Position numbers and translations under genes: made by a program. Positions 288 through 35,977 of a DNA stretch of 37,030 nucleotides are shown here, piece by piece (positions within the stretch are counted from its first letter, which is position 1; each line of letters starts with the position of its first letter). Origin of the DNA: a virus (Duplodnaviria > Heunggongvirae > Uroviricota > Caudoviricetes); the IMG/VR virus record IMGVR_UViG_2861069343_000007, positions 1 through 37,030 of that record. One strand, 5' to 3'. The notes under the pieces were generated by a model. It worked only from the letters and a program-made list of their open reading frames with translations. It was not told the DNA's origin and did not search any database.

Positions 288-665
288 TTACTGATTTTTT
301 CTGTGCTGTGGTTTAAACAAACTACTGATAAATAAGAAACACAGTGCCCCCAGCGCACACCAGAACACCGCGCTTAGTAACCATGCCAGCTCTTGCCAGA
401 ATGAGCGCGTCGGTGAAAAAAACAGCCGCATAATGAGCATCGAACAGGGTGCCGCCAGCATTGCGCCAAACAGAGGTTTCAGGACTTCTCTACGCTGTGA
501 AAAGAAGCTGGCGACTGCTCCAGGAAGAATGAAAAATAGCAAGCCGATTTCAGGATGCCCGGCAGCCCGAAAAGCGCCTTTCATGTGCGTCGCCAGAAAA
601 AGGCACACCACAATGAAGAGGACAAAACAGCAGATTGCCCCCGCCCAACGTTGTTTATGTTTCAC
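288..665 (-). CDS. ybjM: Inner membrane protein YbjM
   Basis: 125 aa, strongly hydrophobic with several predicted TM segments; position between grxA and ybjL matches the E. coli K-12 gene order. Confidence 0.8.
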   Translation of the reverse strand: MKHKQRWAGAICCFVLFIVVCLFLATHMKGAFRAAGHPEIGLLFFILPGAVASFFSQRREVLKPLFGAMLAAPCSMLIMRLFFSPTRSFWQELAWLLSAVFWCALGALCFLFISSLFKPQHRKNQ

Positions 666-934
666 TCGTTCCTCCTGACACTGCGTCTATCGAACACATT
701 TTTCGCCAGTGTGGCGTTCAGTAAGATAAAGCCGCTTCGCATTCCATGCTAATATAGGCCAACGCAATTCATATAGCCGTTGATACCTAATGTGATTACA
801 CTAGTAAAATATATTGTTACTTTACTATCGTTTAGGTGCGCTGAATGAATCTGCGCCCTGAATTCTGGTAAAAAACATTATCGTAAATTACCATTTCTTT
901 CAACAGCTTACTAGTAAACAAGAAGTTAGCCTCC

Positions 935-2620
935 GTGAATATAAACGTCGCCGAATTGTTAAATGGGAATTACATTCTGTTATTATTTGTGGTCCTCGCG
1001 CTTGGGCTATGTCTCGGAAAGTTACGACTTGGTTCGATCCAACTGGGTAATTCCATTGGCGTTTTAGTCGTATCGCTGTTATTAGGCCAACAACATTTCA
1101 GCATTAACACCGATGCGCTTAATCTTGGCTTTATGCTGTTTATTTTCTGCGTCGGGGTCGAAGCCGGACCGAACTTTTTTTCCATTTTTTTTCGCGATGG
1201 GAAAAATTACCTAATGTTAGCACTGGTGATGGTTGGCAGTGCGCTGGTGATCGCCTTAGGGTTAGGTAAGCTGTTTGGCTGGGATATTGGCCTGACGGCC
1301 GGTATGTTAGCAGGCTCTATGACGTCGACACCGGTTCTGGTCGGTGCTGGCGATACACTGCGTCATTCCGGCATGGAAAGCAGGCAGCTCTCACTGGCAC
1401 TGGATAATCTGAGCCTCGGGTATGCCTTAACCTATTTAATCGGTCTGGTGAGTTTGATTGTTGGTGCGCGTTACTTGCCGAAATTGCAGCATCAGGACTT
1501 ACAGACCAGCGCCCAGCAAATCGCCCGCGAACGTGGCCTGGACACTGATGCCAACCGTAAGGTTTATTTACCGGTGATCCGCGCCTATCGCGTCGGCCCG
1601 GAACTGGTGGCCTGGACCGACGGCAAAAATCTGCGTGAACTGGGTATTTATCGACAAACCGGCTGCTACATTGAACGTATTCGACGTAACGGGATTCTGG
1701 CAAATCCAGACGGTGATGCCGTGCTACAAATGGGCGATGAAATAGCGTTGGTAGGCTATCCCGACGCCCATGCCCGACTCGATCCCAGCTTCCGTAACGG
1801 TAAAGAAGTTTTCGATCGTGACCTTCTCGACATGCGTATCGTCACTGAAGAAGTGGTCGTTAAAAACCATAACGCTGTAGGTAAACGTCTCGCACAACTG
1901 AAGTTGACCGATCACGGTTGCTTCCTTAACCGCGTCATTCGTAGCCAGATTGAGATGCCGATAGATGACAACGTCGTGCTTAACAAAGGTGACGTTTTAC
2001 AAGTCAGCGGCGATGCCCGCCGCGTAAAAACCATCGCCGATCGCATCGGCTTTATCTCGATTCACAGCCAGGTCACTGACCTGCTGGCATTCTGCGCCTT
2101 CTTTGTTATTGGGCTGATGATCGGGATGATCACCTTCCAGTTCAGCACATTCAGTTTCGGCATGGGGAACGCTGCCGGGTTGTTATTCGCCGGAATTATG
2201 CTGGGCTTTATGCGTGCTAACCACCCGACCTTCGGTTACATTCCGCAAGGTGCATTAAGCATGGTGAAAGAGTTCGGCTTGATGGTGTTTATGGCAGGCG
2301 TTGGTCTGAGCGCCGGTAGCGGTATTAATAACGGCCTGGGCGCGATTGGCGGTCAGATGTTGATTGCCGGATTAATTGTCAGTCTTGTGCCCGTGGTTAT
2401 CTGTTTCTTGTTCGGTGCTTATGTATTGCGAATGAACCGCGCACTGTTGTTCGGCGCAATGATGGGCGCACGCACCTGCGCGCCGGCAATGGAGATCATC
2501 AGTGATACAGCTCGCAGTAACATCCCTGCGCTGGGCTATGCGGGCACCTACGCAATCGCCAACGTCCTGCTGACGCTGGCAGGGACAATCATCGTCATGG
2601 TATGGCCAGGATTAGGATAA
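935..2620 (+). CDS. ybjL: Putative transporter YbjL (AAE family, duplicated membrane domains with central TrkA-C-like region)
   Basis: 561 aa; hydrophobic N- and C-terminal halves around a soluble middle; recognised as E. coli YbjL. Confidence 0.9.
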
Positions 2621-4265: not shown

Positions 4266-4747
4266 GACAGCAGCCCTCCCACCGTTTTACTGATATCGCT
4301 TAAGGCAGATGTTGCCGTTTCCTGCAGATTATTCAGTTGCGCACTGAGATCACCGAACATATCGGACAGGGATTCATCCACCCGTTTGAGCGACAGGGTG
4401 AACTCAATCCGGCGCGGCATACCGTCGCGGAAAAACTCCGTTTTAGTCTGATTCAGTCCCTCAATCACATACATGCCATAAATCGTGCCGCTGCCTTCAA
4501 TCAGGGGCCATGCTTTCCCCTGTTCTGCCATCTGCTCCAGTGCCAGCAACGACAGCCTGCCACCTGTTATCTCCGGCATAAGAACACCAGAAAGCGTCAG
4601 CATGTCGTTGTCCGGTCCCAGAAACTGCGTGGACGGACGTCGGTTTACCCGGCTGTTTGCCGCATGTCGCCAGCTGCGTTGATACTGCAGCTCCTGATAC
4701 GGCACGGTGCGCAGCATAAACACGTACAATCCCAGCACCATCATCAT
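4262..4747 (-). CDS. U: Tail protein gpU
   Basis: 161 aa; P2 gpU-like; overlapping stop/start with T and D. Confidence 0.85.
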   Translation of the reverse strand: MMMVLGLYVFMLRTVPYQELQYQRSWRHAANSRVNRRPSTQFLGPDNDMLTLSGVLMPEITGGRLSLLALEQMAEQGKAWPLIEGSGTIYGMYVIEGLNQTKTEFFRDGMPRRIEFTLSLKRVDESLSDMFGDLSAQLNNLQETATSALSDISKTVGGLLS

Positions 4748-7700
4748 GCGTCGTATCCCCCCTGATCGCTGTAGTTACTCCTGGCTTTTGCCTTCAGCCT
4801 GCGTTCACGTTCATCAAGCTGGCGGGCCACCTCCCGCGCAATATCCTGCGCACTTTGTCCTGGCTGCGTCTGGATGATGATCTGCGTCGGTGCCTCAATC
4901 CGGTGAACGGGCGGTACAGTGGCTGCACGACTCACCATCGCTTCGCCGCCTTTCGCGGGAAGTGCCAAAGGATGCAACGGTGGAAGCTCTGCAGGCGCGG
5001 CAGCAACGCCCATCATTCCGGCAACAACGGCAGCCAGTGCAGCTGTATTTCTCCGGCTGGTCACATTTGCCGGGCCGTTAACAATTTCCGGCCCGTTTTC
5101 ACCGACGATGCCAAACTGCCCGCGCGGGATATAGCCGCCGCTGTCATACATCCCCGCAAAGCCATATCCCCATGACGGAAAACCACCCGATGGCATCATC
5201 ACTTTACCGTCTGCATTCACCGTCGCAGGTTGCTGACGCGTCACTCTTTCCGGCAGTTTCGCCTTTGCAGCCTCTTTACTGACAATGCCGAGTTTCTCCA
5301 GCAACCAGGAAACGCCGGATTTCAGGGAGTCCAGCGGATGCATGACCATATTCAGCCCTTCCGCCAGTGCCTCCCCGAATCGTCGCCCCATTGCCGCTGC
5401 GCTCTGCAGTTCGGCAGAGGTCGACTTAACGGGCGTCAGCAGATCAGTAAACCAGCCCCACAACGCCTGCACTTTGTCGCCAATCCACTGAAACACAGGC
5501 TTAAGTGGTTCGAATGCTGCACTGATGGGACCTGCCGCCGCTTTGAATCCTTCCACCACACCAGCGAGAAATGCGGTGATGGGTTGCCAGTATTTCCAGA
5601 CAACCAGCGCCACGCCCGCCAGTGCAGTAACCACAAGACCTATCGGACTGAGCAGAGCACCTAACAGACCAGATATGGCATACAGGGCAACGCGCAGCAT
5701 CGCCAGCGGACCGGATGCCAGTACTCGCAGCACCGCGCCTGCGGCAGCCAGTCCACCGCGTAGTGCTGCCAGTGGATTCATAAACATCACAGCAACAGCA
5801 CGTAAACCGGATAATCCAGACCGCAAAAGTGCAACCGGCGCACCTGCTACAGTTTTCAGGACATTTCCCGTCAGTGATGCCGTGCGGCGCAAAGACGACA
5901 ACGGCGCAGTAAGTAAACCTGCGGCGTTGCCCGATGAAGCAAGCCCGCGTCGCAGCAGTGCCAGTGGTGCGCCAGCCATCCAGAACAACGCGTTGCTGGT
6001 TCGGGTTACTGCTGCCGTAACGGAAGGTAACGTTTTGATACCCAGCACAGAGAATCCCAGACGGATGACTGCCAGCGGCCCCAGCACTGCAGCCAACGCC
6101 ACCGCTAAGGTGCCGAGGCCTACGGTAACCGCAGCCACAACAGCGGCTACTTTCATCAATGTGCCCGTCAGTTCCGGGTTAGCTTCCACCCAGCGACGCA
6201 ACGCTCCCGTAACGCTTTTCACCGTGTACAGAATATCCATCAGCGGCTGGCGCAGCGTTTCGCCCAGGCTGCTGAAGGTGTTCTGCGCTCCGGTTTTGAC
6301 CAGCAACCACTGAGCAGAAAGTGAGTCTTTGTTGATGTCGGATTCTTTCTGCATGGAACCGAGCGCATCATTGCCCGCTGTCAGTTTTAGCTGGCGCTGC
6401 AGTTCCGGAAGGTTGTTTGCCAGTTTCGCCGCGTCATCGCCAAACTCTTTACCAAACAACATGGTCATGGCAGACAGACGCTTATCCTGCGGCAGTGCGT
6501 TTACCTTCTCCAGCACACGCTGGATAGTTCCCATCGCATCCTTCGTCATCTGCTTTTCAATCACTTCAGGATTGAGTTTCAGCAGATTCATCCCTTCAAA
6601 GAAACTCTTGCTCTGCATGGTGGCAATAGACAATTCTCGCACCATCGCGTTTGCTGCACTGGCTGCAACCTCCGGCGCAGCGCCCAGTGTCAGGAAGGTG
6701 GAACCCAGCGCCGCCGCTTTACGATAATCCAGACGGTCAGCCACCCCGCCCAGACGTTGCATCACATCAATGATGTCCGCCCCTTTCGACATGGCGTTAT
6801 CATCCAGATAGTTCAGCGCATCGCCGAGCTGTTCAATATTGCGGGTAGGTATTTTGTAGAGCTGGGCGATTTTCCCCAGACTTTCTGACAGTTCATCCGC
6901 TGGCAGCTCAAAGGCTGTTGCCGCCTTTGCTGCCGTACTGGCGAAGGCCAGCAGGTCACGCTTCTGGTCTTCCCAGCTGTCGTCAGGGTTTGCGACGTTC
7001 ATGCGCGCCCCACCTTCAACCAGTGCGGCGAAGTCCACAGCACCGTTTTCCATCGGCAACTGTTCGCTGGCAGCCTTGATGGCACCCTGCATTTCGTAAA
7101 AACGCGCGGTGCGGTTGCCATTATCGTCACGCAGACCACTGACCTGCTTTGCCACACCTTTCATGGCATCTTCCATGCTGGTATAGCTTTTTACTGCCGC
7201 CATCACTGGCGCGCCCATTGCCAGCCCTGCCGCCGTGGTGGTGGCTCCGGCACCTGCAATACGATCACGTACCTCCAGCGAACGGGCATAACTGGCACGC
7301 GCCGCATTCATCCTGCGCTGAGCTTCCCCCAGTCGCTTCAGCCGCGCCTCCTGTTTCGACAATTCCTGGTTATAACGGGATGTTTCACGGGCTAAACGGG
7401 CAGTTGCTCCCGCATCATCTTTCGCAGAAATTCCCGCCCGGTACAGTTCTGCACGCACAAGCGCCGTTTGCTTCTGCAAATATTTTTGTTGTTCTTCCAG
7501 GCGTTGGACTGCCAGCGTTTGCCGACCTAAAGCCACAAGGTGCCGTTGTGATGGTTGTTCCATCGCCTCCAGCTCAGAGCTAAGCAATTTAGCCTTCTGT
7601 CTGGCATAGTTCAGCCTGTCGCCTAACTTCTTGTTATCGGCCTGCAGCTTGCGAAATTTTTCCAGGCTGTTACCCGCCTGATTGAGTTGCTTTAATGCGT

Positions 7701-7821
7701 CACGGGAGTTTCTGATTGCGCCAGCCAGCTCTTTCGAACTGGCCTGTGCAGCACGGAATGGGCGGGTGAGTTTGTCAACCGCATTAAGAATGACCTGCAG
7801 GCGCAGGTTATTATCACTCAT
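4744..7821 (-). CDS. T: Tail tape measure protein gpT
   Basis: 1025 aa; coiled-coil N-terminal part, Ala/Gly-rich hydrophobic middle, typical tape measure. Confidence 0.9.
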   Translation of the reverse strand: MSDNNLRLQVILNAVDKLTRPFRAAQASSKELAGAIRNSRDALKQLNQAGNSLEKFRKLQADNKKLGDRLNYARQKAKLLSSELEAMEQPSQRHLVALGRQTLAVQRLEEQQKYLQKQTALVRAELYRAGISAKDDAGATARLARETSRYNQELSKQEARLKRLGEAQRRMNAARASYARSLEVRDRIAGAGATTTAAGLAMGAPVMAAVKSYTSMEDAMKGVAKQVSGLRDDNGNRTARFYEMQGAIKAASEQLPMENGAVDFAALVEGGARMNVANPDDSWEDQKRDLLAFASTAAKAATAFELPADELSESLGKIAQLYKIPTRNIEQLGDALNYLDDNAMSKGADIIDVMQRLGGVADRLDYRKAAALGSTFLTLGAAPEVAASAANAMVRELSIATMQSKSFFEGMNLLKLNPEVIEKQMTKDAMGTIQRVLEKVNALPQDKRLSAMTMLFGKEFGDDAAKLANNLPELQRQLKLTAGNDALGSMQKESDINKDSLSAQWLLVKTGAQNTFSSLGETLRQPLMDILYTVKSVTGALRRWVEANPELTGTLMKVAAVVAAVTVGLGTLAVALAAVLGPLAVIRLGFSVLGIKTLPSVTAAVTRTSNALFWMAGAPLALLRRGLASSGNAAGLLTAPLSSLRRTASLTGNVLKTVAGAPVALLRSGLSGLRAVAVMFMNPLAALRGGLAAAGAVLRVLASGPLAMLRVALYAISGLLGALLSPIGLVVTALAGVALVVWKYWQPITAFLAGVVEGFKAAAGPISAAFEPLKPVFQWIGDKVQALWGWFTDLLTPVKSTSAELQSAAAMGRRFGEALAEGLNMVMHPLDSLKSGVSWLLEKLGIVSKEAAKAKLPERVTRQQPATVNADGKVMMPSGGFPSWGYGFAGMYDSGGYIPRGQFGIVGENGPEIVNGPANVTSRRNTAALAAVVAGMMGVAAAPAELPPLHPLALPAKGGEAMVSRAATVPPVHRIEAPTQIIIQTQPGQSAQDIAREVARQLDERERRLKAKARSNYSDQGGYDA

Positions 7822-8250
7822 CGTTGGCCCCGCTTCTCTGAATCGCTTTATACCGCCATTCCAGCACTTCGGTCAGCGGCATAACGTCAGTAACGGATGG
7901 CGGCCAGTGAAAGATGGTGGCGATATCAGCCACCAGATCGTCAACCGTCAGGCTGTCGGTAAACCGGCAAGCACCGACTTCTTCAACAAAAAAGTGACAA
8001 CCTCAACCGACATGGCAGTGAGATCTGCCGGGTCCATCTCTGCAATTTCCTGTGCAGTCAGTGCCGGACTGGAGATGCGGGGGATCACGGTCATCATCGC
8101 GTTCACATCCATATCCATAATGGCCTGCAGGCGTGTACCGCGCAGCGCACCGGACTGCGGTTTACGCAGCACAATTTCGGTAATTTCTGTTTTACCGCGC
8201 TTGATAGGGGTATCCAGTTGAATGGTCTTTTCAGTCTGCTTATCGCTCAT
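7814..8250 (-). CDS. E': gpE+E' fusion made by programmed -1 frameshift
   Basis: Hand translation of the -1 frame after TTTTTTG (plus-strand 7987..7993) gives an open extension VEEVGACRFTDSLTVDDLVADIATIFHWPPSVTDVMPLTEVLEWRYKAIQRSGANDE ending at TGA overlapping the T start (ATGAGTGA). Confidence 0.7.
7948..8250 (-). CDS. E: Tail assembly chaperone gpE
   Basis: 100 aa; ends ...VTFLLKKSVLAGLPTA; contains slippery heptamer TTTTTTG near the 3' end. Confidence 0.85.
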   Translation of the reverse strand: MSDKQTEKTIQLDTPIKRGKTEITEIVLRKPQSGALRGTRLQAIMDMDVNAMMTVIPRISSPALTAQEIAEMDPADLTAMSVEVVTFLLKKSVLAGLPTA

Positions 8251-8304
8251 TTTGTTGTCCTGTAAATTGGGTTCTGGCGCGGAATCCCGCGCCGTTCAGA
8301 TACA

Positions 8305-8820
8305 TCAGAGGCCGAGGGCGTTGCGGTGCGCTTCCATCAGGTCCACACCGTCCACAATTTCCACCATGTTGATAAGGTCCACTTCATAGAGCACCTCACC
8401 ATTGATGGTCAGCTTCGCGTAGCTGTTGGTACTGGTCACTTTGGTGGTGTTGCTTTCGCCCGTCTTCCACTCACCGGAATCCACTTCTTTGTGACGTCCA
8501 CGCACCACAAGCTCCACGGCCTGCACTTCCCCGGTATCGTCACGCTGGATAGAGCCGGTAAAGCGCAACTGGATGCCATCCACCGTGGATTTGCCCATCT
8601 GCTTAAACAGCAGCAGTTCGGTACCACCAATGGAAAATTCTGTGTCCAGCGCACTATCATCCAGCCCCAGATCCACATCCACTGCACCCGGCATTCCGCC
8701 ACCGCGATACTTCTCATATTTGCGGGTGAATTTCGGCAGCGTCAGCGACTCAACGATCCCCTGCCAGTTGTTCCCGTCGTTAAACAGGTTCAGGTGTTTT
8801 AATTTGCGTGGTAAAGCCAT
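8305..8820 (-). CDS. FII: Tail tube protein gpFII
   Basis: 171 aa; P2 FII-like; follows the sheath gene. Confidence 0.85.
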   Translation of the reverse strand: MALPRKLKHLNLFNDGNNWQGIVESLTLPKFTRKYEKYRGGGMPGAVDVDLGLDDSALDTEFSIGGTELLLFKQMGKSTVDGIQLRFTGSIQRDDTGEVQAVELVVRGRHKEVDSGEWKTGESNTTKVTSTNSYAKLTINGEVLYEVDLINMVEIVDGVDLMEAHRNALGL

Positions 8821-8829
8821 GTTGTCCCC

Positions 8830-10002
8830 TTACGCGCTGACCTGGCTGGAGAAATTCACCAGGTACTGATCGGTGATGCGCTGACGCAGCATCAGGTTTT
8901 CAAGTGGCGGCACTGGTGTGTAGTCGTAGTCGATGGTGAGTTTTCCAGCTTTCAGAGTGTCTTTATCGTTCACCGACTCATCCAGCCAGCAATCGCCACC
9001 AATGAGATAGCCCTGACTGATCAGGCTGCGCATTTTGGCGCGGATACCTTCGATAATGTCGCGGGCCAGCGACGGATTCAGCGGTTTGTCGACCGCCCAC
9101 ATTGGCGCTTCTGCCATCGTGTCCATCAGCACCTGCGCCGTGCGGGTGTAGTTTTCGAAGGCAAAGAGTGGGTCATCACTCAGGCAGCGGGAACCCCAGA
9201 AGCGGAAACCGTCTTTGCGGATAAGCGTGGTAACGTCGTTCTGGTTAAGCAGACCTGCATCGGTTGCCGGGTCCTGCAGATCCCAGAACACATCTGCAGA
9301 AATTCCGGTGACACCGTTCACGCCCACGTTGGACAGGCTTTTGTGCCACCCGGTTTGCTCATCAATTTTGGCACGCAGACCAAGCGCACGGGCGGTGGCA
9401 TATGCCGTTGCGTCGGCATTCAGCACCGTGTCCCAGCCAGTAAAGTCGGGCCAGATCAGCATCCCTTCACGCTGGCTGAAGTTTTTACGGTAAGTGATTG
9501 CTTCCTGCACCGTCTTGCAACCATACGCTGACAGGTAAGCAAACCCACGCAGGCTTTGCGCCACGCCCAGCAACTCAGTAGCAACGGCTTTGTTATCGTG
9601 CCCCGGCACGCCGAGAATGCGCGGTTTAACACCGAGCTGTGACTGGGCAGATAACAGGGCTTTCATACCAGTTTTTTTACCTTCAGCAGTCACTGCGCCG
9701 ATGATATTGGTCGTGGTTTCTTCTTCCGTTTCACCCTGCGGCACACGCACAACAACGGTCACGGGTTTTGCCTGGTCAGCGATGGCATCCAGCGAACGGG
9801 CCAGCGTACCTGACTCACCCGCTTTACCGCTGGCAGTAAGCACATCAGTGATCAGCACGGGTTTATTAAGAGGGAACATTTTTGCATCGGCATCATCGCC
9901 CGTGCAGACCATGCCCACGATGGCGGTGCTCACCGTAGTAATGGATCGAGTGCCTTCGTTGACTTCAACAACGCGCACTCCGTGGTGGTAATCCTGAGCC
10001 AT
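8830..10002 (-). CDS. FI: Contractile tail sheath protein gpFI
   Basis: 390 aa; P2 FI-like. Confidence 0.9.
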
Positions 10003-10108: not shown

Positions 10109-10522
10109 TTATCTGCTTGCAGGGAAAACAGGCCAAATGATATCAGGTGCGGTGCTGGTATCTGTTGCCGTCACAGCCTCGATATAATCCAGCACAACGT
10201 TAAGTCGGGTAGTTTCTTCTTGCGTCAGTTTGCGCCCGGCCTGCAGCTTTAACTGAATCACGCTGATATTGGCCATTGCTGCGTCTATCAGCGACTGTTT
10301 TTTCTGTTCAGCGTCAGCTACCAGTTCATTATGAGAACGTTCCGGAGGGAGCGGCGCAGTAAATACCCCGTCTGAATACCCCCAGCCAATTCCGGGATGC
10401 TCACTGATATCAGAAATATCAATGAGCTGCTGATTATCCGGCACTGTGAATTCAGCCTCGCCATCCCAGACAATGACATTCACAACCATCCCATTTTCAA
10501 TAACTGCATATGACGCATTCAT
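10109..10522 (-). CDS. G: Tail fiber assembly protein (gpG/Tfa family)
   Basis: Directly downstream of H; start at MNASYAVIENG where its ATG overlaps the H stop (TAATG). Confidence 0.8.
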   Translation of the reverse strand: MNASYAVIENGMVVNVIVWDGEAEFTVPDNQQLIDISDISEHPGIGWGYSDGVFTAPLPPERSHNELVADAEQKKQSLIDAAMANISVIQLKLQAGRKLTQEETTRLNVVLDYIEAVTATDTSTAPDIIWPVFPASR

Positions 10523-12837
10523 TATGCAAACTCCTCGATAATACAAATCCCTGCAGCGCCTTTCCCGCCCGTCATACTGGTTCCGCTATAACCGGCATCG
10601 TATGCACCACCTCCGCCTGAACCATATGCCTTACCACTAACACCACCGCCAGCGCCTGCGCGTCCACCGCCGCCCCAGTGCGATGTTCCGCCTTCACCGC
10701 TGACGCTGATATTTCCGGACTGACCGTCGCCTCCATCTCCACCAGTGATGCGGATATCGCCAGTACTCGGCACACCTCCGTTACCGCCGTTTGTGTTTGT
10801 AACACCCACTTTCCCGCCGCCTGCGCCACCAGGAGCAATTAACGATGCGAATACGCTATTCCCGCCCCTGGTGCCGTTCGTCGCACTAACACCACCGGCC
10901 CCACCTGCGCCGATAGTGACTGGATAACTATTCTGTGTCGGGGTCATTATTGAAATTATTGTTCCACCGGCCCCACCGCCAGCACCGAAAAACGTTTCAT
11001 TATTGGATGTAGCCTTGCAGCCGCCCCCTCCGCCACCGCCGCCCGTTATTGTGACCCTGAGCCGTTTTGTTCCTGGCGTCGGGATGTACGTACCTGATGA
11101 CGTGAAAACCCTAGTGCTTATCAGGCGCCCAACGTATCCACTTTCATCGCTCAAGCCAAGGTCAGTAGTAGTAGGTTTATTTTTAGTGTTATACGCTCTG
11201 CGCCATCCAGGTGAATAACTTGTGCTGCCAGACACGTTAAACACATAGATAAACTCCGCATTAGTGAGTGCACCAGAGACACTTGTCGTCGTGGCTGTTG
11301 TTATTCGAATAGTGTAATTGTCGGTATTATTGCTGAATACTTCTATCACAGCACCCGTCAGTGGAATAATGCCACAACCAGTTTCACTGTCTGGTATGGA
11401 TGCACTAGTTGCATACGACCATGCACAACGAGCGAACCATGCTTTCGTATTGAATGCCCCATTATTTTGCAACAAAGTAACTAACTGAGCTGTCGTTATT
11501 GACTCACCGTTATTACCTGTTTTTAACCAACCAGTAGGAGATGCCGGGCAACCAATATACTGAATAACCTCCTGTGTGCTTGTTTTAGCCAGAATATCCC
11601 GTCCAACATTAGTCAGTGTTGTCAAGCTGGCTGTATCATTCCCCGTAAAATACGGTAGTTTGTCTGCCGCAGTGGCAAGGCCTGCCAGTGCGGTCAGTGT
11701 GGCGTCGGCAGGTTGTTTTCCATTGGCAAGGTCATATACAGCCTTCACGGCTTTTGGTGTGGCAGCCTGCGTTTCTGACGTGCTGTTAGTGGCGCTGCTG
11801 AGTTGCACGGTGCCTTTTACCGTCAGTGAAGCTGCAGGCACATCCGTTATCTGGCTCCACGGGTGCGTGTGACTGACAGGTGCCTTACCTGCTGCAAGGT
11901 CATATGCCGCCTTCACTGCCTTTGGTGTGGCAGCCTGCGTTTCTGACGTGCTGTTAGTGGCACTGCTGAGTTGCACGGTGCCTTTTACCGTCAGTGAAGC
12001 TACAGGCACATCCGTTATCTGATTCCACGGGTGTGTGTGACTGACAGGTGCCTTACCTGCTGCAAGGTCATATGCCGCCTTCACTGCCTTTGGAGTGGCG
12101 GCCTGCGTTTCTGATGTGCTGTTAGTGGCGCTGCTGAGTTGCACAGTGCCTTTTACCGTCAGCGAGGCTGCAGGTACACCTGTTATCTGATTCCACGGGT
12201 GTGTGTGACTGGCGGATGCTTTACCTGCTGCAAGATCATATGCAGCCTTCACAGCCTTCGGTGTTGCGGCCAGTATTTCGGATTCACTGTTGGTCGCACT
12301 GCTTAACTGAGTAAAACCTTTTGCGGTCAGCGAGGCGTCCGGGTGACGTCGTGACTGTTCGTGCTCTGATATTTTGTCATCCACATACTTGCGAGTTGCC
12401 AGTACTACAGCAGGGTCGATTTTCAGGGTGATATTGTCCGTACTGCTGGTAATCAGCACCATGCGCACGGTCTGGGTGCGCCCGCTGCCTTCAGCCAGTT
12501 GCGGTTTATAGCTTTCCGGGCAGTTCCCCACGGCAATCAATGCCCCTGACTCATCAAACAGGCCCACTTCACGTATCCACCAACCGCCCTCGTTTTCAGG
12601 GATCACCTGTTCAGCAATAATCTGGCTGCTGTTCTGCGGGTCGATATAGAGCATATTCAGTGCAGCCCGGCGTTTCTCATTTACCAGTGCAGTCTGCTTT
12701 GCGTCCGGCGTCGGCAATGCTCCGCCGCCATCGCCCACCGCCATATGGGTAATTTTTAGCGGCACACCAAGCGCGGCGGCGCTGGCAAGTTTCGCCGCGC
12801 CAATATCCGTCAGCAGGGTATAAAATTTTGTGCTCAT
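10522..12837 (-). CDS. H: Tail fiber protein gpH with four tandem fiber repeats and glycine-rich C-terminal domain
   Basis: 771 aa; P2 H-like N-terminus; four ~57-aa repeats (SLTVKGTVQLSSATNSTSETQAATPKAVKAAYDLAAGKAPVSHTHPW); C-terminal ~200 aa rich in GGxGG. Confidence 0.9.
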   Translation of the reverse strand: MSTKFYTLLTDIGAAKLASAAALGVPLKITHMAVGDGGGALPTPDAKQTALVNEKRRAALNMLYIDPQNSSQIIAEQVIPENEGGWWIREVGLFDESGALIAVGNCPESYKPQLAEGSGRTQTVRMVLITSSTDNITLKIDPAVVLATRKYVDDKISEHEQSRRHPDASLTAKGFTQLSSATNSESEILAATPKAVKAAYDLAAGKASASHTHPWNQITGVPAASLTVKGTVQLSSATNSTSETQAATPKAVKAAYDLAAGKAPVSHTHPWNQITDVPVASLTVKGTVQLSSATNSTSETQAATPKAVKAAYDLAAGKAPVSHTHPWSQITDVPAASLTVKGTVQLSSATNSTSETQAATPKAVKAVYDLANGKQPADATLTALAGLATAADKLPYFTGNDTASLTTLTNVGRDILAKTSTQEVIQYIGCPASPTGWLKTGNNGESITTAQLVTLLQNNGAFNTKAWFARCAWSYATSASIPDSETGCGIIPLTGAVIEVFSNNTDNYTIRITTATTTSVSGALTNAEFIYVFNVSGSTSYSPGWRRAYNTKNKPTTTDLGLSDESGYVGRLISTRVFTSSGTYIPTPGTKRLRVTITGGGGGGGGCKATSNNETFFGAGGGAGGTIISIMTPTQNSYPVTIGAGGAGGVSATNGTRGGNSVFASLIAPGGAGGGKVGVTNTNGGNGGVPSTGDIRITGGDGGDGQSGNISVSGEGGTSHWGGGGRAGAGGGVSGKAYGSGGGGAYDAGYSGTSMTGGKGAAGICIIEEFA
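11700..12350 (-). repeat. About four tandem ~171-bp coding repeats inside the tail fiber gene
   Basis: Near-identical DNA units beginning gcaaggtcatat... recur at ~11726, ~11897, ~12068 and (diverged) ~12232. Confidence 0.8.
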
Positions 12838-22499: not shown

Positions 22500-22535
22500 T
22501 TTTAAAACGAAGACCATTAGGTCTTCGCTTTATTT
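22500..22535. terminator. Bidirectional terminator between convergent Q and retron RT
   Basis: 8-bp stem cgaagacc / ggtcttcg (loop atta), flanked by ttttaaaa upstream and ctttattt downstream; RT stop codon lies in the loop. Confidence 0.55.
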
Positions 22536-23479
22536 AAAGGGTTCTTTCCATATTTTTTTTCTAATTTGCTAATATAAGCTATTAATCTTCTATGGCTTTT
22601 TGAATCCACACTTAAAATAAATGACAACCATCCCCTAACGTGTTCTATCTCAGAAGATTTACCGCAAAATATATGATGTATCTTTGCTCTAATTTCTTTA
22701 TATTTTTCTCTACCTATCCCAACTTTCTCTTGTGAAATAACTAAACCTGTAACTTTCCTCTGACTACGAGGCCCACTAATACAAGTTTTTTTTGAGTTAA
22801 TAACCAATCCTTCACTTGGGATTATAGAAAATAAAAAATCACGTGCTTTAACAACCTTTTTCATAGACTGTGCAGATAAGGTGAGATCATCGGCATATCT
22901 CGTATATATCAAGCCCCGACTACCTGCATAGCCCTGAATACGATAATCAAGTTTTGAACATATTAGATTAGCTAATTTAGGTGATGATGGAGCACCTTGT
23001 GGTAGCAGATTTTTATAACAACATATTTTTGTCAAAACTGAAGATATTAGTCGATTATAACCAAGAGAATGGAACACTCCAAAAACTTTGTTAGCAGTTA
23101 AACTTGGGAAAAAATCCTCCAAATCAATATTCAGTATAAAGTTTGCCCCAATATGCGGGGTAGCATTATTCAAAATAGATTGGTGCTTTTCAAATCCAAT
23201 AGAAAAAGGAGATGACGACAGTTTATCTAAAATGTTACGTAGAACCCATCCTTGTAAGGCTTTAAGTTCTCGAGAAGGTTGGTAAATGGTTCTCATTCTC
23301 TTCTCTGGGCCTTTCTTTTCTACAGTGTAGATCCTATAGCGAAAATCAGCTGTATAGATTAACAACCGAAGTGTTTCAACAGATATGCGAGTCGCCTTAG
23401 ACATGTCATGCAAATTGTTCATGACAGGTAGGCCGAGATTTCTCAATCTAAAAGTGTTCAAATATTCAGCGGATTTCAT
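22517..23479 (-). CDS. ret: Retron reverse transcriptase (Retron-Eco1 / Ec86 RT)
   Basis: 320 aa; RT motifs including YADD (YTRYADDLTL); start codon 7 nt downstream of the a2 repeat of msr-msd. Confidence 0.93.
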   Translation of the reverse strand: MKSAEYLNTFRLRNLGLPVMNNLHDMSKATRISVETLRLLIYTADFRYRIYTVEKKGPEKRMRTIYQPSRELKALQGWVLRNILDKLSSSPFSIGFEKHQSILNNATPHIGANFILNIDLEDFFPSLTANKVFGVFHSLGYNRLISSVLTKICCYKNLLPQGAPSSPKLANLICSKLDYRIQGYAGSRGLIYTRYADDLTLSAQSMKKVVKARDFLFSIIPSEGLVINSKKTCISGPRSQRKVTGLVISQEKVGIGREKYKEIRAKIHHIFCGKSSEIEHVRGWLSFILSVDSKSHRRLIAYISKLEKKYGKNPLNKAKT

Positions 23480-23485
23480 GAAAGT

Positions 23486-23654
23486 TGCGCACCCTTACGT
23501 CAGAAAAAACGGGTTTCCTGGTTGGCTCGGAGAGCATCAGGCGATGCTCTCCGTTCCAACAAGGAAAACAGACAGTAACTCAGATTCAATGCAGGATGCC
23601 GAAACAACATCCAGAGGTTGACCTTAATGATAAACCTCTCGCTAAGGGTGCGCA
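23486..23654 (-). ncRNA. msr-msd: Retron msr-msd non-coding RNA (Ec86 msDNA template)
   Basis: Plus strand 23499..23585 reads gtcagaaaaaacgggtttcctggttggctcggagagcatcaggcgatgctctccgttccaacaaggaaaacagacagtaactcaga, recognised as Ec86 msd; flanking inverted repeats a1/a2 TGCGCACCCTTA at 23643..23654 and 23486..23497. Confidence 0.9.
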
Positions 23655-24565
23655 TACGGAATCTTATCATAGTTAAATGTTGATTTTCTACGGTTTTCAA
23701 AATTCATAATCTCAAGCCGCAATCGGTCAAGTGTCTTTCTATCAAAGACGCTCCTAACATAGCTAGCCCCCAAAGCAGTGACCTGATAACCATCAGTCAT
23801 TTGAAGTATTTTTCGTTCATTTATTAGACGAGAAACAACGGATCTAACAATAATTTTAGATAAAACATCATCTTGCTTTATCGCTTTAAAAGCTAGTTCA
23901 CACAGTGTGCGGTAGTTGACACTATCCAGTAAATAGATACAAGGCAATAGAAACCGCTCTGCGTATAATATATTTCCAATATCTTTTGATACTTTATTTT
24001 CTTTCCTAACCTGCTTAATAGATGCCATTAATTTTTTATATAATCGTAATTTTCTGGCAACATCAATAGATGAATCACACATTTCTTTTAGTTCATTTGA
24101 ACTACAACGCAAAACAGATTTTGAATTAAACTTACGCAACAGGCGAACAGGACCATAGTTAATAAAGCTACGTTTTGATTTAAATTTTGCATCTTGAATG
24201 CAAATCAACTTTCTCCTTAAGTTTTCATTATTAGAGAACGCACCAAGCTCTGTGAAAGACCCCGGACTTTCAGGAAATAAAATTATTACATCGACAGCTT
24301 CAGCCAGAATATTTTCTAAACTTAAAAGGCTATGCTGCCCTTGACCAGCCAAAAGATCATCAAATAGATCTTCTGGATAAAATATATCAACATCACTGAA
24401 CTTTGCTAAAAATTGTGATAATTGATGACGCCAAGATTGATGATTAGCAACGTCACCACCACATAGAAAAATGGTTATTTTAATATTAGCTCCTCGATAG
24501 AAGCCTTTCTTTGTGAGATGTCCTATAAGCTGTTGTTGCTGCTCATCGGTAAATTTTTTATTCAT
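23642..24565 (-). CDS. Retron-Eco1 accessory effector (nucleoside deoxyribosyltransferase-like domain protein)
   Basis: Immediately upstream of msr; start assigned to MNKKFTDEQ (ATG 24565..24563, GGAG 4 nt upstream) though in-frame ATGs exist upstream (24595, 24754); stop overlaps a1. Confidence 0.75.
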   Translation of the reverse strand: MNKKFTDEQQQQLIGHLTKKGFYRGANIKITIFLCGGDVANHQSWRHQLSQFLAKFSDVDIFYPEDLFDDLLAGQGQHSLLSLENILAEAVDVIILFPESPGSFTELGAFSNNENLRRKLICIQDAKFKSKRSFINYGPVRLLRKFNSKSVLRCSSNELKEMCDSSIDVARKLRLYKKLMASIKQVRKENKVSKDIGNILYAERFLLPCIYLLDSVNYRTLCELAFKAIKQDDVLSKIIVRSVVSRLINERKILQMTDGYQVTALGASYVRSVFDRKTLDRLRLEIMNFENRRKSTFNYDKIPYAHP

Positions 24566-24637
24566 AATCTCCCCGCTTTTTTCTACTTTATACATCAAGT
24601 TATGAATAGATCCAATCTCCATACCCCATGGCGCGCG

Positions 24638-24656
24638 CTCGTATCCCCGCCACGCC
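24638..24656. other. Candidate cos site (cohesive end)
   Basis: Minus strand reads GGCGTGGCGGGGATACGAG, resembling the P2 cohesive end GGCGAGGCGGGGAAAGCAC as recalled; inside a short GC-rich patch between two AT-rich islands. Confidence 0.4.
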
Positions 24657-24697
24657 TGCCCGCTTTGTGTAGTGGTTTTCATGCACCTGCATGACAT

Positions 24698-24722
24698 AAG
24701 TAAAAGCCCGCCAGAACTGGCG
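24698..24722 (-). terminator. Hairpin with U-tract on the minus strand in the cos-proximal region
   Basis: cccgccag..ctggcggg stem (24706..24722) followed on the minus strand by a T-run. Confidence 0.35.
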
Positions 24723-24874
24723 GGACTGAGCAAAAACGATCCTTTTGCGATCATTCATTTTCATGCGCTATAGTCATGCAACAAACGCATACGAACCATA
24801 TGGTTAGATTACTCATCAAGTCAGATGGATTTTCAGGCAGATTGCCACAGCAATTGTAAAGGAGCGAGATTGAA

Positions 24875-28306: not shown

Positions 28307-30721
28307 TTAATACAGATCCCGCCACTTATCATCTTCCTGCAAACGCTGGTTCCGATAGAAGATACGCAGGCCTGCTCCTGACGGAATACTGCCGCCGCGA
28401 AGGAGTAAATCGACCTCTTTCTCGCTGCCATCAAATCCTCTGGACTTCAGTTCATAGACGAGCTGCTGTCGTTGATGGTCTGTAATTCGCTGTTTGTAGT
28501 CTCTACGCCGTTTCGGTTTCACCAGGCGTAACCTTGCAGCCAGTTCCCGGCGTTCTTTTTTGTTCATACTGTGCAGGTAATCGTGCAACTCCTTGTCATC
28601 CATACGGGTGATATCCGTTCTGGTATCCCCATCAGCTGATTTGTCTTTCCCTTGTTGGTACAAATTTTCAGCAAGGGGACAGTTATTGCCACGAGTCCAA
28701 GGGGCGCAAGCGCCCTGGTCGGCTACCGCCTCCTGAACGTCAACGGCCTTACGAACCATTTTCCACTTCACTGCATGAGTGCAGATCTTGCCCTCTGAAA
28801 TGGGTGACCAGATGCCATAAATACGAATACCGTGATCGCCATAGGCGGTCGGCTCTTCGTTAATTTCATAAGCGGTTCTGATAAGGTGATATTTGCGGGG
28901 AACCAGTACGCCGCCCTGCTTCATGATGTAGGTGGCAAAACAACCAGCATCAGCAGCAGCCAGGATGGCATCAAGACGCGGGTCATCCAGTACCGGCGCA
29001 CCTGCTTTTTTGTCACCCGGTTGCCTTGCCGCCTGACCAGCCAGCAAGCGAAGTTCACGGTAAGCCTGACGCCCCGGAATGCCAAAGAAGCGGAATTGCT
29101 GAACACGATGCAGAGACGCCCAGGCATTAACGTATTCAGCGTTATCACGCAGGGATTTACCCGTTTCCTTGCTGATCTCGCCAGCCAGACCACGCCCGTC
29201 AATGTTCTTACTGATGTATTTCGCGATGTAGCTTGTTGGCGTACCTTTGCGCGGGTTTATCAGCTCAGACTTAAAGCGTGGTCCCGTGTTATTACCCAGC
29301 TCCTCGCGGTCTTCACGAATGGCAAACTTACGCAACAAAGCAGTAATGGTGCGGCGATCTTTTTTGCGCATAAAACACAACAGGTGCCAGTGAACTGTAC
29401 CGTCATGATGCGGCTCAGCCACCCGCACGCCATACCAGCGCAATCCGGCTTTGTGCATCGCCTTACGAAATGCAGCAAACATGCCGACCAGATAATCACT
29501 GCTTTGTCTTACCGTCGTATTTGTCCAGGTCGGGTTGGGCCTGCCGTTATTTAGCGTGGAATGGAAACGTGACGGACAGGTGATGGTGTAGAAAACGGCG
29601 CAGTCACCGCGCATTTCCGCGATAAGCTCCAGACCTTTAACACAGGCCATCATCTCATTGCGGCGATGCGCAGGGTTGCTGCTGCTGGCGTTTACCACAT
29701 CCTCCATGTCCAGCGTGTCGCCGTCTTCGTTCACCAGTTCATGAGAACGGAAAAACTCCAGCGACTTACGGCGCTGCTCACGTTTATGCATCACGGCTTC
29801 ATAGCTGACATAGGGAGATGCTTTTTTGCTGACCAGGCAAACAGCACGCAACTGCTCTTCCCGCCATTCGCAACGCATCTTCCATAATTTCCGGTACCAC
29901 CAGTCGGCGCACAACATACGCGCCAGCGAACCCGGAATGAGTTCATAGGGCACGGGTTTACGGCGGTTTCTTTTCCGGCGGAGTTGCTCAAACGCAGGCG
30001 GTATGACATCCAGTCGCAGGGTTTCCGCAGCCACCTTTTCCCATGTCTTGCGGATTTCTTCTGGCTTAACATCATCGGTGGCGTACAAATCACCACAAGC
30101 GGCATCAAGACACATGCTCATATGCGCAGCGACAAGAGTAGACAGGCGTTTCACCTGATCCTGACTCATTTCAGGCAAGTTCAGCAGGCCGTCCAGCCCT
30201 TCATGGCTTGCCATAAAGCGAAAAGAAGTGGATAGCTGACTCTCGCGTACATGCTCCAGTCGTTCCAGACATGGCTTAATCGTCTCACGCAAATAGCGGG
30301 AATAAGCCTTTGGCCTGCCCAGGCTGCTGAAGTATTCAATACGTTGCATCAGCGGCTTGCTGATATGGGAAGGCTGGGCGTTAACGTCCGCCAGTATGAC
30401 CATGTCCGGATTAAAACGCTGCTGCTCATGCGCCAGCTTTGCCCGGCTAATGAGCTTATCCTGCTCCATTTCGCGTTGGACAGGATCACGGGATTCATTA
30501 AAGAAATAACGCTCCCAGACCTGATCACTCAGTACCTCGAGGCGCAGTTGTTCCTGCTCGTTATCGGCAGCGTACAGAGTGATCAGGTTTGAAAGCGCAG
30601 AAACCGGCGCAACTTCCGCCGGGTCCAGATAAGGGTTAATAGCCTTTTTCGGGCTGTTCCATGAGAATGCTGCGGCGGCCTCGTTAAAGCCGCTGCAGTT
30701 GTTCATATCAGCATGGCTCAT
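28307..30721 (-). CDS. A: Replication initiation protein gpA (rolling-circle nickase)
   Basis: 804 aa; P2/186 A-like. Confidence 0.9.
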
Positions 30722-31575
30722 GCACGCACTCCGTACACGGCAGAACTATCCACGCCACGCGAAGGATCAAATCCCACCCAGCAGCGCACCCCAGAAACAG
30801 CGATGATTTCTGCTGCAAATTTACTCTCACCAGCTGCTACGCCGATGCTGCGTTTTGCCTTGATGTAGTGGTGAGTAAAATTGCGATACAGCGAACGGAT
30901 CAGGGATGTGTCACTGTTAGAAACAATGACCGGATGTCCTTCTGATGACCGATGTTCAAGAACGGATGCCAGGTGATACTGGTCATCTTCAGTGAAGCCG
31001 TCAGTGTGATAACCGGAAAACGTGCCGTCATACGGCGGATCGCAATACACCACATCCCCCGCCTTCAACATCGCCAGCGTTTCATCAAAGCTGGCGCAGA
31101 TAAACGTTGCCCGCTGAGCTTTTTCTGCAAATGCGCGAATTTCTTTTTCAGGGAAATACGGATTTTTATAATTACCGTAGGGAATGTTGAAATGCCCGCT
31201 CTTGTTATAGCGACATAAACCACGGTAACCGTGACGATTGAGATACAGGAAATATACCGCTTTCATGAAATCAGTAATTTCAGTGGAGTAATTAAACTCC
31301 TGCCTTATGTTGTAATAAGCCACCTCCCTGTTTGCTTCCTCAAACAAAATTCTGGCGCTAGATATAAACGCCTCACAATCAGCAGCAACCTTTTTATAGA
31401 GGTTGATTAAATCAGGATTAATATCCGCAACCAGATAGCTGGGATAATCCGTCTCCATCATCACTGCACAGGAACCCGCGAAAGGTTCAACCAGTCGCGG
31501 GCCAGCAGGAAGATGTTTTTTCAGTTCGGACATAATGGCGGTTTTATTTCCCGCCCATTTCAGGATGGTGCTCAT
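30718..31575 (-). CDS. dam: DNA adenine methyltransferase (orphan Dam-like MTase)
   Basis: 285 aa; DPPY catalytic motif ([12 protein letters not shown]) and N-terminal SAM-binding region; overlaps A start. Confidence 0.85.
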
Positions 31576-34566: not shown

Positions 34567-35898
34567 ATGAGCACAGATATAACTTTCGATATACGTGATG
34601 AATATAAAAGAAAAGCCATTGCAGAAAAAATAATAAGTTTGCTAGAGTCTAATATTCCTGTTTCACCTATGGTCATAGATGGGGACTGGGGGACTGGAAA
34701 AACAGAGTTTTCAAAAAAGTTAGCATCCTTAATTGAAATAAACTCGACCAATCATAAAGTAATTTATATAGATGCTTTTACTGAAGATCACAACGATGCT
34801 CCCATACTTACAATAATGGCCGCAATTGCAGCTCTATATAATAGCGATGAAAAAAAGGAATTAATATCTAAGGCATTGCCAGCCCTCAGATTCGGACTTA
34901 AGACTGTACTCAAAGCTGGTGCTGGTTGGGTATTAAAACAAAATGCGGATGAAATTAATAAGGAATTTGAAGAGGTTATCAAAGACGCTGCAAATTCAGC
35001 TATCGATGGAACCATCGAGGCTCTGTTAGAAGATCATATCGAGGCACAAAAGAACGTTCTTGCTCTAAAAGAAGTACTAACCAAATTAGCTGGAGAAAGT
35101 AAACTAACAATAATTATAGATGAGTTAGACAGATGTAAGCCTAGTTTTGCCATTTCTATTATTGAAAATATAAAACATGTTTTTGATATAAAAAACATTA
35201 ACTTTTTATTAATTGCAAACACAACTCAACTAAAAGCATCCATAAATCATATCTATGGCTCTTCTGTAGACTCCAACCGTTATCTTGACAAATTTATAAA
35301 ATTTACATACAGCCTTCCTGTTACCTTTAAGGAAGATAATTATAATGATACTTTAACTTCCAAAAATCATTGGATGATGCTATGTGAGCAATCTGAAAGG
35401 CTGACCGCTGCAGTAGAAGCCAGCGAAGATATTTTCTTACAGTTCATTGAAAGTAGAAAATTATCATTACGTGAGGTTGAAACACTTGCTAGATATGTTG
35501 AAATATACCAACTACTATCAGGCGACAAAATTAGCAACAAATATATTTATGGATATTGTTATTACAGGACTCTAGCGATAATAATCTACACTTTTAACCG
35601 AGAGTTAGCTCTCAACTTTCTTGAAGATAAAGTTGATGCTCAATCAATCATGAAATTGTTTGGTTTATCTAAATTTTCATATCAAACAAGTGAATATAAT
35701 GTAGATAATTATGAATATGCTATATTTGGAATAGTTTACAAATACTTATCTGAAAACTCATCTCTTTTACCTGCTGAGGAAAATATAAAAAGACAATGGG
35801 CAGAAATGAGTGAATACCATTTTTTAAAAGGTGGTGGCGGTATTGGTGAACCAACAAATATTGTGAAAGATGCTTTAAAAGTTTTTTTACTTCAGTGA
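34567..35898 (+). CDS. KAP-family P-loop NTPase
   Basis: 443 aa; Walker A GDWGTGKTEF and Walker B IIIDELDRCKP in KAP NTPase arrangement; AT-rich; between cI and int. Confidence 0.8.
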   Translation: MSTDITFDIRDEYKRKAIAEKIISLLESNIPVSPMVIDGDWGTGKTEFSKKLASLIEINSTNHKVIYIDAFTEDHNDAPILTIMAAIAALYNSDEKKELISKALPALRFGLKTVLKAGAGWVLKQNADEINKEFEEVIKDAANSAIDGTIEALLEDHIEAQKNVLALKEVLTKLAGESKLTIIIDELDRCKPSFAISIIENIKHVFDIKNINFLLIANTTQLKASINHIYGSSVDSNRYLDKFIKFTYSLPVTFKEDNYNDTLTSKNHWMMLCEQSERLTAAVEASEDIFLQFIESRKLSLREVETLARYVEIYQLLSGDKISNKYIYGYCYYRTLAIIIYTFNRELALNFLEDKVDAQSIMKLFGLSKFSYQTSEYNVDNYEYAIFGIVYKYLSENSSLLPAEENIKRQWAEMSEYHFLKGGGGIGEPTNIVKDALKVFLLQ

Positions 35899-35977
35899 TA
35901 TGTATGGCTATACAAATTCATACATTGACACTGGTTATACATACAGTAAAAATGCTCTCCACTGGAGGGCATTTTTT

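Follow-up and report, generated by a model that had tools for sequence, protein, structure and literature searches.

Comparative evidence for a P2-type E/E+E' frameshift site in the tail operon of an Escherichia coli prophage

INTRODUCTION

Does the tail operon of an E. coli prophage specify, in addition to the tail assembly chaperone gpE, a longer chaperone that is made only when ribosomes change reading frame? The question was raised by a 37,030-nucleotide (nt) stretch of DNA (positions 1 to 37,030 of IMG/VR virus record IMGVR_UViG_2861069343_000007), which we refer to as the window. A prediction made from its letters and a list of its open reading frames (ORFs) placed a slippery TTTTTTG heptamer near the end of the gpE gene and proposed that a programmed -1 frameshift at this heptamer produces a gpE+E' tail chaperone. 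Here, we present a computational analysis of the locus. We are highly confident that the site, which lies in a P2-family (Fels-2/SEN8-like) E. coli prophage, is orthologous to the E/E+E' recoding site of phage P2.

The E/E+E' frameshift is already known biology, since it is textbook material for P2 and has been reported as conserved in P2-like phages. In published accounts, a -1 shift at TTTTTTG in P2 yields E (91 amino acids [aa]) and E+E' (142 aa), and the E/E+E' shift is conserved in P2-like phages (PMC3091744 and PMC3931495, with reference to Christie et al. 2002 and to Xu et al. 2004). PMC10307801 and PMC3711429 contained no information about the P2 site. In the GenBank record of P2, both gpE and gpE+E' are labeled "essential tail protein," and the position homologous to the one studied here is marked as "site of -1 translational frameshift." The records of phages PSP3 and KL3 contain joined E+E' coding sequences (CDSs).

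RESULTS

Organization of the E/E' locus

The features of the locus, together with those of the remainder of the window, are listed in Table 1. All coordinates are window positions, and the whole E/E' feature is on the minus strand, a point that the original prediction had not stated. Gene E was flanked by FII, the tube gene, and T, the tape measure gene, in a contractile-tail late operon. The gene order in this operon was FI-FII-E/E'-T-U-D, with all of the genes on the minus strand and with matching Pfam families, as in P2.

As predicted, a TTTTTTG heptamer was present near the end of the gpE gene, 13 codons from the gpE stop codon. The zero-frame codons at the heptamer were ACT-TTT-TTG, which is the canonical X_XXY_YYZ phase. 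Translation of the -1 frame from G7987 gave VEEVGACRFTDSLTVDDLVADIATIFHWPPSVTDVMPLTEVLEWRYKAIQRSGANDE (57 sense codons; VEEVGACRF...RSGANDE), close to the 55 or so codons that had been proposed, and the re-translation revealed no stop codon in this frame between the heptamer and TGA 7816..7814. The proposal that a plain ORF track misses the product was also borne out, as the only stand-alone ORF in this frame (GTG 7933, 39 aa) was below the 40-aa limit of the ORF list. The TGA had been described as overlapping the start codon of the tape measure gene, and this description was correct only in part: the end of E' and the start of T did overlap by 8 nt (ATGAGTGA), but the TGA fell on T codons 2-3 and not on the ATG triplet itself. 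The Shine-Dalgarno (SD)-like sequence of T, GAGAAGCGGGG, was inside E' and had an anti-SD pairing energy of -7.0 kcal/mol.

Upstream of the heptamer, the -1 frame was shut by a TGA that sits only four codons before the re-pairing codons. Therefore, the window in which a shift would be productive spanned about 17 codons, and T_TTT_TTG was the sole X_XXY_YYZ motif inside it.

Table 1. Features of the E/E' locus and of other parts of the 37,030-nt window
Feature	Position	Strand	Remarks
gpE, zero-frame tail assembly chaperone	7948..8250	-	100 aa; ATG 8250; TGA 7950..7948; in the ORF list
Slippery heptamer T_TTT_TTG	7993..7987	-	Phe-Leu codons 7992..7987
E' segment	7814..7987	-	57 sense codons in the -1 frame, then TGA 7816..7814; G7987 read twice
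Composite gpE+E' coding region	7814..8250	-	145-aa fusion; predicted junction ...VVTFL/VEEVGAC...
Putative E' helix, DDLVADIATIFHWPP...WR	within E'	-	
TGA closing the -1 frame upstream	8003..8005	-	5' limit of the productive shift window; from the -1-frame translation
SD-like GAGG, candidate upstream stimulator	8001..8004	-	8 nt before the second motif base
Candidate hairpin, unproven	7955..7980	-	6-8 nt downstream of the heptamer
Internal GTG, RefSeq/PGAP start of the 39-aa "GpE family phage tail protein"	7931..7933	-	Probably an annotation artifact
Tape measure gene T	4744..7821	-	1025 aa; ATG 7821..7819; PF10145; RefSeq start identical
Tail tube gene FII	8305..8820	-	PF04985, E=1.2e-59; upstream neighbor of E
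Tail sheath gene FI	8830..10002	-	Pfam Phage_sheath
Tail fiber gene H	10522..12837	-	Four tandem Phage_fiber_2 repeats; C-terminal glycine-rich domain PF21722
ybjM-like inner-membrane protein, host	288..665	-	Left end of the window
Asp-Al_Ex/TrkA_C permease, host	935..2620	+	Left end of the window
Retron reverse transcriptase	22517..23479	-	Pfam RVT_1; PADLOC RT_II-A, E=8e-128
Nucleoside deoxyribosyltransferase-like effector	23642..24754	-	PADLOC NDT_II-A, E=5.5e-94
Three codirectional genes, 333/359/227 aa	24875..27625	+	PADLOC Hp1/Hp2/Hp3, E=1e-239/3e-248/2e-157
gpA replication gene	28307..30721		Neighbor of the orphan methyltransferase gene
Orphan Dam-like DNA methyltransferase	30718..31575	-	PADLOC oMTase, E=4e-111; adjoins gpA
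KAP-family P-loop NTPase	34567..35898	+	PF07693, E=5e-53; PADLOC candidate PDC-S20, E=7e-171; directly upstream of the integrase
Integrase gene	35900..37030		Runs off the end of the window

Both halves of the predicted fusion protein are homologous to P2 proteins

The gpE part of the fusion matched Pfam family PF10109 (Phage_TAC_7; E=1e-18; 67.5 bits relative to a cutoff of 25) over profile positions 1-78 of 79. The description of this family reads "tail assembly chaperone proteins E, or 41 or 14," and the RefSeq name for gpE is "phage tail assembly protein." When gpE was aligned with P2 gpE, the alignment ran end to end with 44% identity up to the slip site, and the Phe-Leu slip codons of the two genes shared an alignment column.

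Similar results were obtained with the extension. It matched the full profile (positions 1-37) of Pfam family PF06528 (Phage_P2_GpE; E=2.9e-18; 65.5 bits relative to a cutoff of 23), with the match covering fusion residues 107-143, and it also matched PHROG 1756 and PHROG 6416, both of which are designated "tail protein." The proposed similarity to P2 E' was confirmed by a gap-free alignment in which 32 of the 57 residues (56%) were identical to those of the P2 E' segment (E=8e-24). A search of NCBIfam produced no match to gpE or the fusion, and a PDB sequence search matched no solved homologue. Taken together, the homology, the gene order, the in-phase heptamer, and the overlapping ORFs agreed with the P2-type E/E', lambda G/GT-like arrangement that the original prediction had put forward.

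The heptamer and the -1 frame are conserved among relatives

A tblastn search with the fusion protein matched 425 phage records, and one place covered at least 80% of the fusion in 388 of these. In nearly all of the records listed, the match consisted of two pieces in different frames. Because an initial scan of viral contigs gave only loci with identical gpE, diverse loci were obtained by re-querying with the gpE sequences of ST11-VIM1phi8.4 and ENT90 and from tblastn matches in the phage collection.

We fetched 256 loci, many of them near-identical, which means that the following counts are not independent. The E' motif was found in the -1 frame of 255 loci, and an in-phase TTTTTTG was found in 249. 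The other six loci with an E' motif carried TTTTTTA (two loci), TTTTTTC, TTTTTTT, AAAGGGC, or CCCTTTC; the AAAGGGC, which is in a Mannheimia phage, adjoins G_GGA_AAG. In loci that had lost TTTTTTG, a different slippery motif took its place, such as G_GGA_AAG in Mannheimia, TTTTTTC in Vibrio, and TTTTTTT in Zymomonas. When 15 diverse phage loci were fetched for comparison, 11 had an in-phase TTTTTTG. The heptamer was kept in P2, PSP3, phiCTX, KL3, ENT90, SEN4, a Ralstonia phage, and an Acidovorax phage, and the diverse phages that keep it share only about 40-50% protein identity. It was also retained at a GC content of 64-68% (phiCTX, KL3, and Ralstonia) in phages of Pseudomonas, Burkholderia, and Ralstonia. 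Local codon usage predicts that a Phe-Leu pair is written as TTT TTG in only about 1-14% of cases.

Two kinds of natural variants were noted at the heptamer. Two related loci (L035, from IMG/VR, and L186) had TTTTTTA instead of TTTTTTG, a change that leaves the frame-0 Leu unaltered and converts Val to Ile in frame -1. In ST11-VIM1phi8.4-like relatives, the run was lengthened to T7G. These variants could be used for testing the effects of the seventh base and of run length on the slip rate.

Selection was analyzed in the close clade, which was represented by 93 unique sequences. In the part upstream of the heptamer, third positions of the zero frame held 42 of the 60 variable columns. In the 36-nt two-frame overlap, the variable columns showed no phase preference. 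After the gpE stop codon, 26 of the 45 variable columns were at third positions of the -1 frame, compared to 10 and 9 at the other positions, and the -1 frame was free of stop codons in all 93 sequences, whereas the other two frames had one to six stop codons. These results indicated that purifying selection acts on the -1 frame.

A frameshift extension or a separate E' gene

Purifying selection on the -1 frame would fit equally well if E' were an independent 39-aa gene that is initiated at GTG 7933 and needs no frameshift. RefSeq and the records of SEN8 ("tail protein E'") and ST11-VIM1phi8.4 annotate E' in this way, the PF06528 model spans only this 37-aa part, and 12 of the 16 diverse relatives had Met or Val at the corresponding codon. 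In the remaining four, however, which were Ralstonia, Mannheimia, Acidovorax, and Vibrio phages, the equivalent codon specified Ala, Ile, Ile, and Trp, respectively, and the slippery motif was still present.

The sequence before the GTG also argued against initiation at this codon. No SD sequence preceded GTG 7933; the pairing energy there was -2.5 kcal/mol, which equals the regional background mean, whereas the true starts of E, T, U, FI, and FII paired at -4.0 to -11.0 kcal/mol. Moreover, an independent gene does not require an in-phase heptamer that is kept against codon bias, and it leaves unexplained why the -1 frame was open back to the heptamer in every lineage. In the case of P2, E' was reported to have no ribosome-binding site and to be expressed as a -1 extension of E at T6G (PMC3931495). 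We therefore consider a separate E' gene to be very unlikely.

Proposed mechanism and points for and against it

Comparative evidence suggests that frameshifting occurs in this prophage, and low-rate tandem -1 ribosomal slippage was the best-supported mechanism. Ribosomes would begin at ATG 8250, and the majority would stay in frame 0 until TGA 7950..7948, yielding the 100-aa gpE. A minority would slip back one base with tRNA-Phe and tRNA-Leu on UUU-UUG (7992..7987). The slipped tRNAs would re-pair on UUU-UUU, and reading would resume at G7987 in the -1 frame for 57 further codons, yielding a 145-aa gpE+E' protein that ends just within the tape measure gene. If P2 and lambda G/GT are taken as models, the N-terminal domain common to both proteins may coat the tape measure protein T, and the E' domain may recruit the tail tube protein FII. 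A low and fixed ratio of the two proteins, set by the slip rate, would be required for tail assembly, and neither protein would stay in the virion. Slippage in this prophage, the rate at which it would occur, the residue at which the junction would fall, and the proposed binding partners are all inferred.

Several observations weighed against this explanation. The first was that the raw pattern was unremarkable. The window contained 20 copies of TTTTTTG relative to an expected 13.2 +/- 3.6, which is not an enrichment, and its open frames of 100 codons or more contained 74 X_XXY_YYZ motifs in phase. The -1 frame was open for at least 57 codons at 12% of the in-phase positions. Hence, a heptamer and an open frame are, by themselves, within chance. 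The second was that U_UUU_UUG was absent from the efficient E. coli motifs in a systematic survey (PMC4066793); since it is not an efficient motif, it fits a low ratio of gpE+E'. The third concerned RNA structure. Folds of the 60 and 107 nt after the heptamer were no better than those of shuffled sequences (z = -0.36 and -1.46, respectively), and because no significant stimulatory structure was found, the rate of slippage may be very low. The lambda chaperones are made at a ratio of 30:1, and a low slip rate would still fit such a ratio.

Because the pattern statistics were unremarkable, the case rests on homology and conservation, and these lift the E/E' site beyond chance. The unenriched heptamer and the frequency of comparably long -1 frames are what would be seen if a Phe-Leu pair rich in T simply co-occurred with an overlapping frame that was open by accident, neither having a recoding function. 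On the other hand, such a co-occurrence does not account for a -1 product that is homologous to E', for an arrangement that is kept across genera, or for the codon-position selection seen in the -1 frame. The homology and conservation results ruled it out, and the probability that we assign to it is negligible.

A nearly identical protein would also be produced if RNA polymerase added one U in the T6 run, in which case the edited mRNA would encode gpE+E' with the junction ...TFF/VEE..., and the two routes are indistinguishable from sequence data. With six T residues here and seven in ST11-VIM1phi8.4-like relatives and Smp131, the site is a homopolymer run. Six residues are short for efficient slippage by E. 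coli RNA polymerase, however, which counts against this route. U7 and A7 runs can yield mRNA insertions and deletions (PMC4066793), but the family retains the X_XXY_YYZ phase exactly, as well as the G at the 3' end, and the G_GGA_AAG motif of the Mannheimia phage is nonhomopolymeric and workable only on the ribosome. In addition, the interpretation published for P2 is a translational one (PMC3091744, PMC3931495). We regard transcriptional slippage as very unlikely to be the main source of the fusion.

Candidate stimulatory elements

We also identified sequences flanking the heptamer that might stimulate slippage on the ribosome. Upstream, no other site in the E/E' region had anti-SD pairing as strong as that of the GAGG at 8004..8001 (-6.3 kcal/mol). 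This GAGG qualifies as an SD-like element under the rules of PMC4066793, and its distance suits an upstream stimulator (6-17 nt). SD-like elements preceded the heptamer in 63 of the 67 unique contexts and, among the 16 diverse lineages, in 12, compared to a background of 12.8%. When the same peptides were recoded synonymously, 8.0 of the 16 lineages were expected to have such an element versus the 12 observed (p ~0.01, with the lineages not being independent). Based on this expectation, most of the SD-like signal reflects amino acid composition (Gly-Gly, Glu-Val, and Lys-Val).

Downstream, the candidate hairpin has two stem options, namely, GUCGGU 7978..7973 with ACCGAC 7960..7955 and AAGUCGG 7980..7974 with CCGGUUU 7967..7961. 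Folding predicted a hairpin of 6-7 base pairs in all of the close clade. One of its pairs covaries (U-A, C-G, and U-G), a covariation that must be read with the caveat that the region codes in two frames. The hairpin was absent from P2-type and ENT90-type sequences, and no hairpin was reported in P2 or Burkholderia phages (PMC3091744). A search of Rfam gave no match at E<=1.

It is conceivable, although in our view rather unlikely, that in the Fels-2/SEN8-like clade the weak T6G is tuned by the GAGG and the hairpin at 7980..7955, flanking elements that P2 reportedly does not have, and that these would set a clade-specific ratio of gpE to gpE+E'. Such a ratio would perhaps be matched to the longer, 1025-aa tape measure protein. 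With the same reservation, an SD-like element located 6-17 nt upstream could be a general, unrecognized part of the P2-family signal, given its presence in 12 of the 16 lineages.

A different hairpin was noted in the 54-nt spacer between FII and E. This GC-rich hairpin (GGCGCGG-GAUU-CCGCGCC; 8276..8293, minus strand) was not followed by a U-tract, and the folding energy of the spacer was -16.4 kcal/mol (z = -2.67). It may be a partial terminator or an mRNA-stabilizing element that lowers the expression of E and T relative to that of the sheath and tube genes. A rho-independent terminator is annotated at the matching place in the Mannheimia phage record.

Comparison with known frameshift systems

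All of the sequence-level features that define the P2 E/E+E' site were found at this locus, and the differences from P2 were quantitative only. The two sites share the TTTTTTG heptamer, its phase, and the aligned Phe-Leu codons, and the E' extension is 57 codons long in both. Both have an ATGAGT(G/A)A overlap with T (ATGAGTGA here and ATGAGTAA in P2), both are placed between FII and T, and in both E' lacks a ribosome-binding site. In terms of length, gpE is 100 aa here and 91 aa in P2 because the zero-frame stop comes 13 codons after the heptamer here and 7 codons after it in P2 (39 and 21 nt, respectively). The fusion is 145 aa relative to 142 aa in P2, T is 1025 aa relative to 815 aa, and identity over the whole protein reaches only about 49%. 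The SD-like element that precedes the heptamer reads GAGG at this locus but AGGTG in P2, and a small downstream hairpin was predicted only in the Fels-2/SEN8-like clade.

Closer relatives had essentially the same locus. The DNA identity was 97.5-98.3% in the case of the Klebsiella phages Kp48xx and 4LV2017 and the E. coli "plasmid" p13P477T-2, and the fusion-protein identity was 86% in the case of SEN8 (Salmonella, Felsduovirus). The heptamer and the extension length were identical in all of these relatives, and there was no biological difference; their records either give E' a 39-aa CDS of its own or leave it unannotated, and none presents it as a joined frameshift product.

The lambda G/GT-like class, a functional class of Xu et al. 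2004, consists of overlapping ORFs that lie between the major tail and tape measure genes and are joined by a conserved programmed frameshift (PMC3091744, PMC5009743). Overlapping ORFs, a conserved frameshift site, and a predicted common N-terminus were all found in E/E'. Like lambda gpG and gpGT, the two proteins would have a shared N-terminus and depend on a low-level -1 shift near the gene end, and they are encoded between the major tail and tape measure genes. For lambda G and GT, a chaperone role and absence from virions have been described (PMC5009743; Levin et al. 1993, Xu et al. 2004, 2013, 2014). In contrast, there is no detectable sequence similarity to the lambda proteins (PMC3931495), the lambda motif is G_GGA_AAG, and the lambda tail is noncontractile, whereas the tail here is contractile.

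The possible three-part layout of GAGG, heptamer, and hairpin located 6-8 nt downstream is reminiscent of E. coli dnaX and IS911/IS3. Here, however, both flanking elements were weak and statistically unconvincing, and the heptamer is of a low-efficiency type in E. coli.

Implications for annotation

DNA with at least 95% identity to E/E' was present in 997 of 5426 complete E. coli genomes (about 18%). Across these approximately 1000 genomes, RefSeq lists a free-standing 39-aa E' and no joined gpE+E'. As a consequence, the 145-aa protein is missing from those proteomes, and an artifactual mini-protein is listed instead. The value of the site is thus in annotation, and biologically it holds nothing new. 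As a clean natural case of a low-efficiency heptamer under strong nucleotide-level selection, it is also of use as a positive control for frameshift-prediction tools.

Other features of the prophage

The window is a P2-family prophage whose closest records, with about 98% DNA identity, are p13P477T-2 and the Klebsiella Kp48xx phages. On the left, it is integrated beside two host genes, one ybjM-like and one for a permease, and its integrase is at the right end. Since the left end (288..2620) is host chromosome, the prophage end is located between about 2620 and 3165. No tRNA gene was found in the window.

The tail fiber gene H contains repeats that, in translation, are near-identical "SLTVKGTVQLSSATNS...SHTHPW" units. 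At the position of this gene, the closest E. coli record (CP019275) has an invertase-associated tail fiber segment.

Several genes matched models in PADLOC, as listed in Table 1. A type II-A retron defense module (22517..24754, minus strand) was located just past the portal gene. The matches of the three adjacent genes to Hp1-Hp3 were full length and near-identical, and these genes also matched PHROGs of unknown function. No Pfam match was found for the three genes (333, 359, and 227 aa), which look like a second cargo or defense cassette beside the retron.

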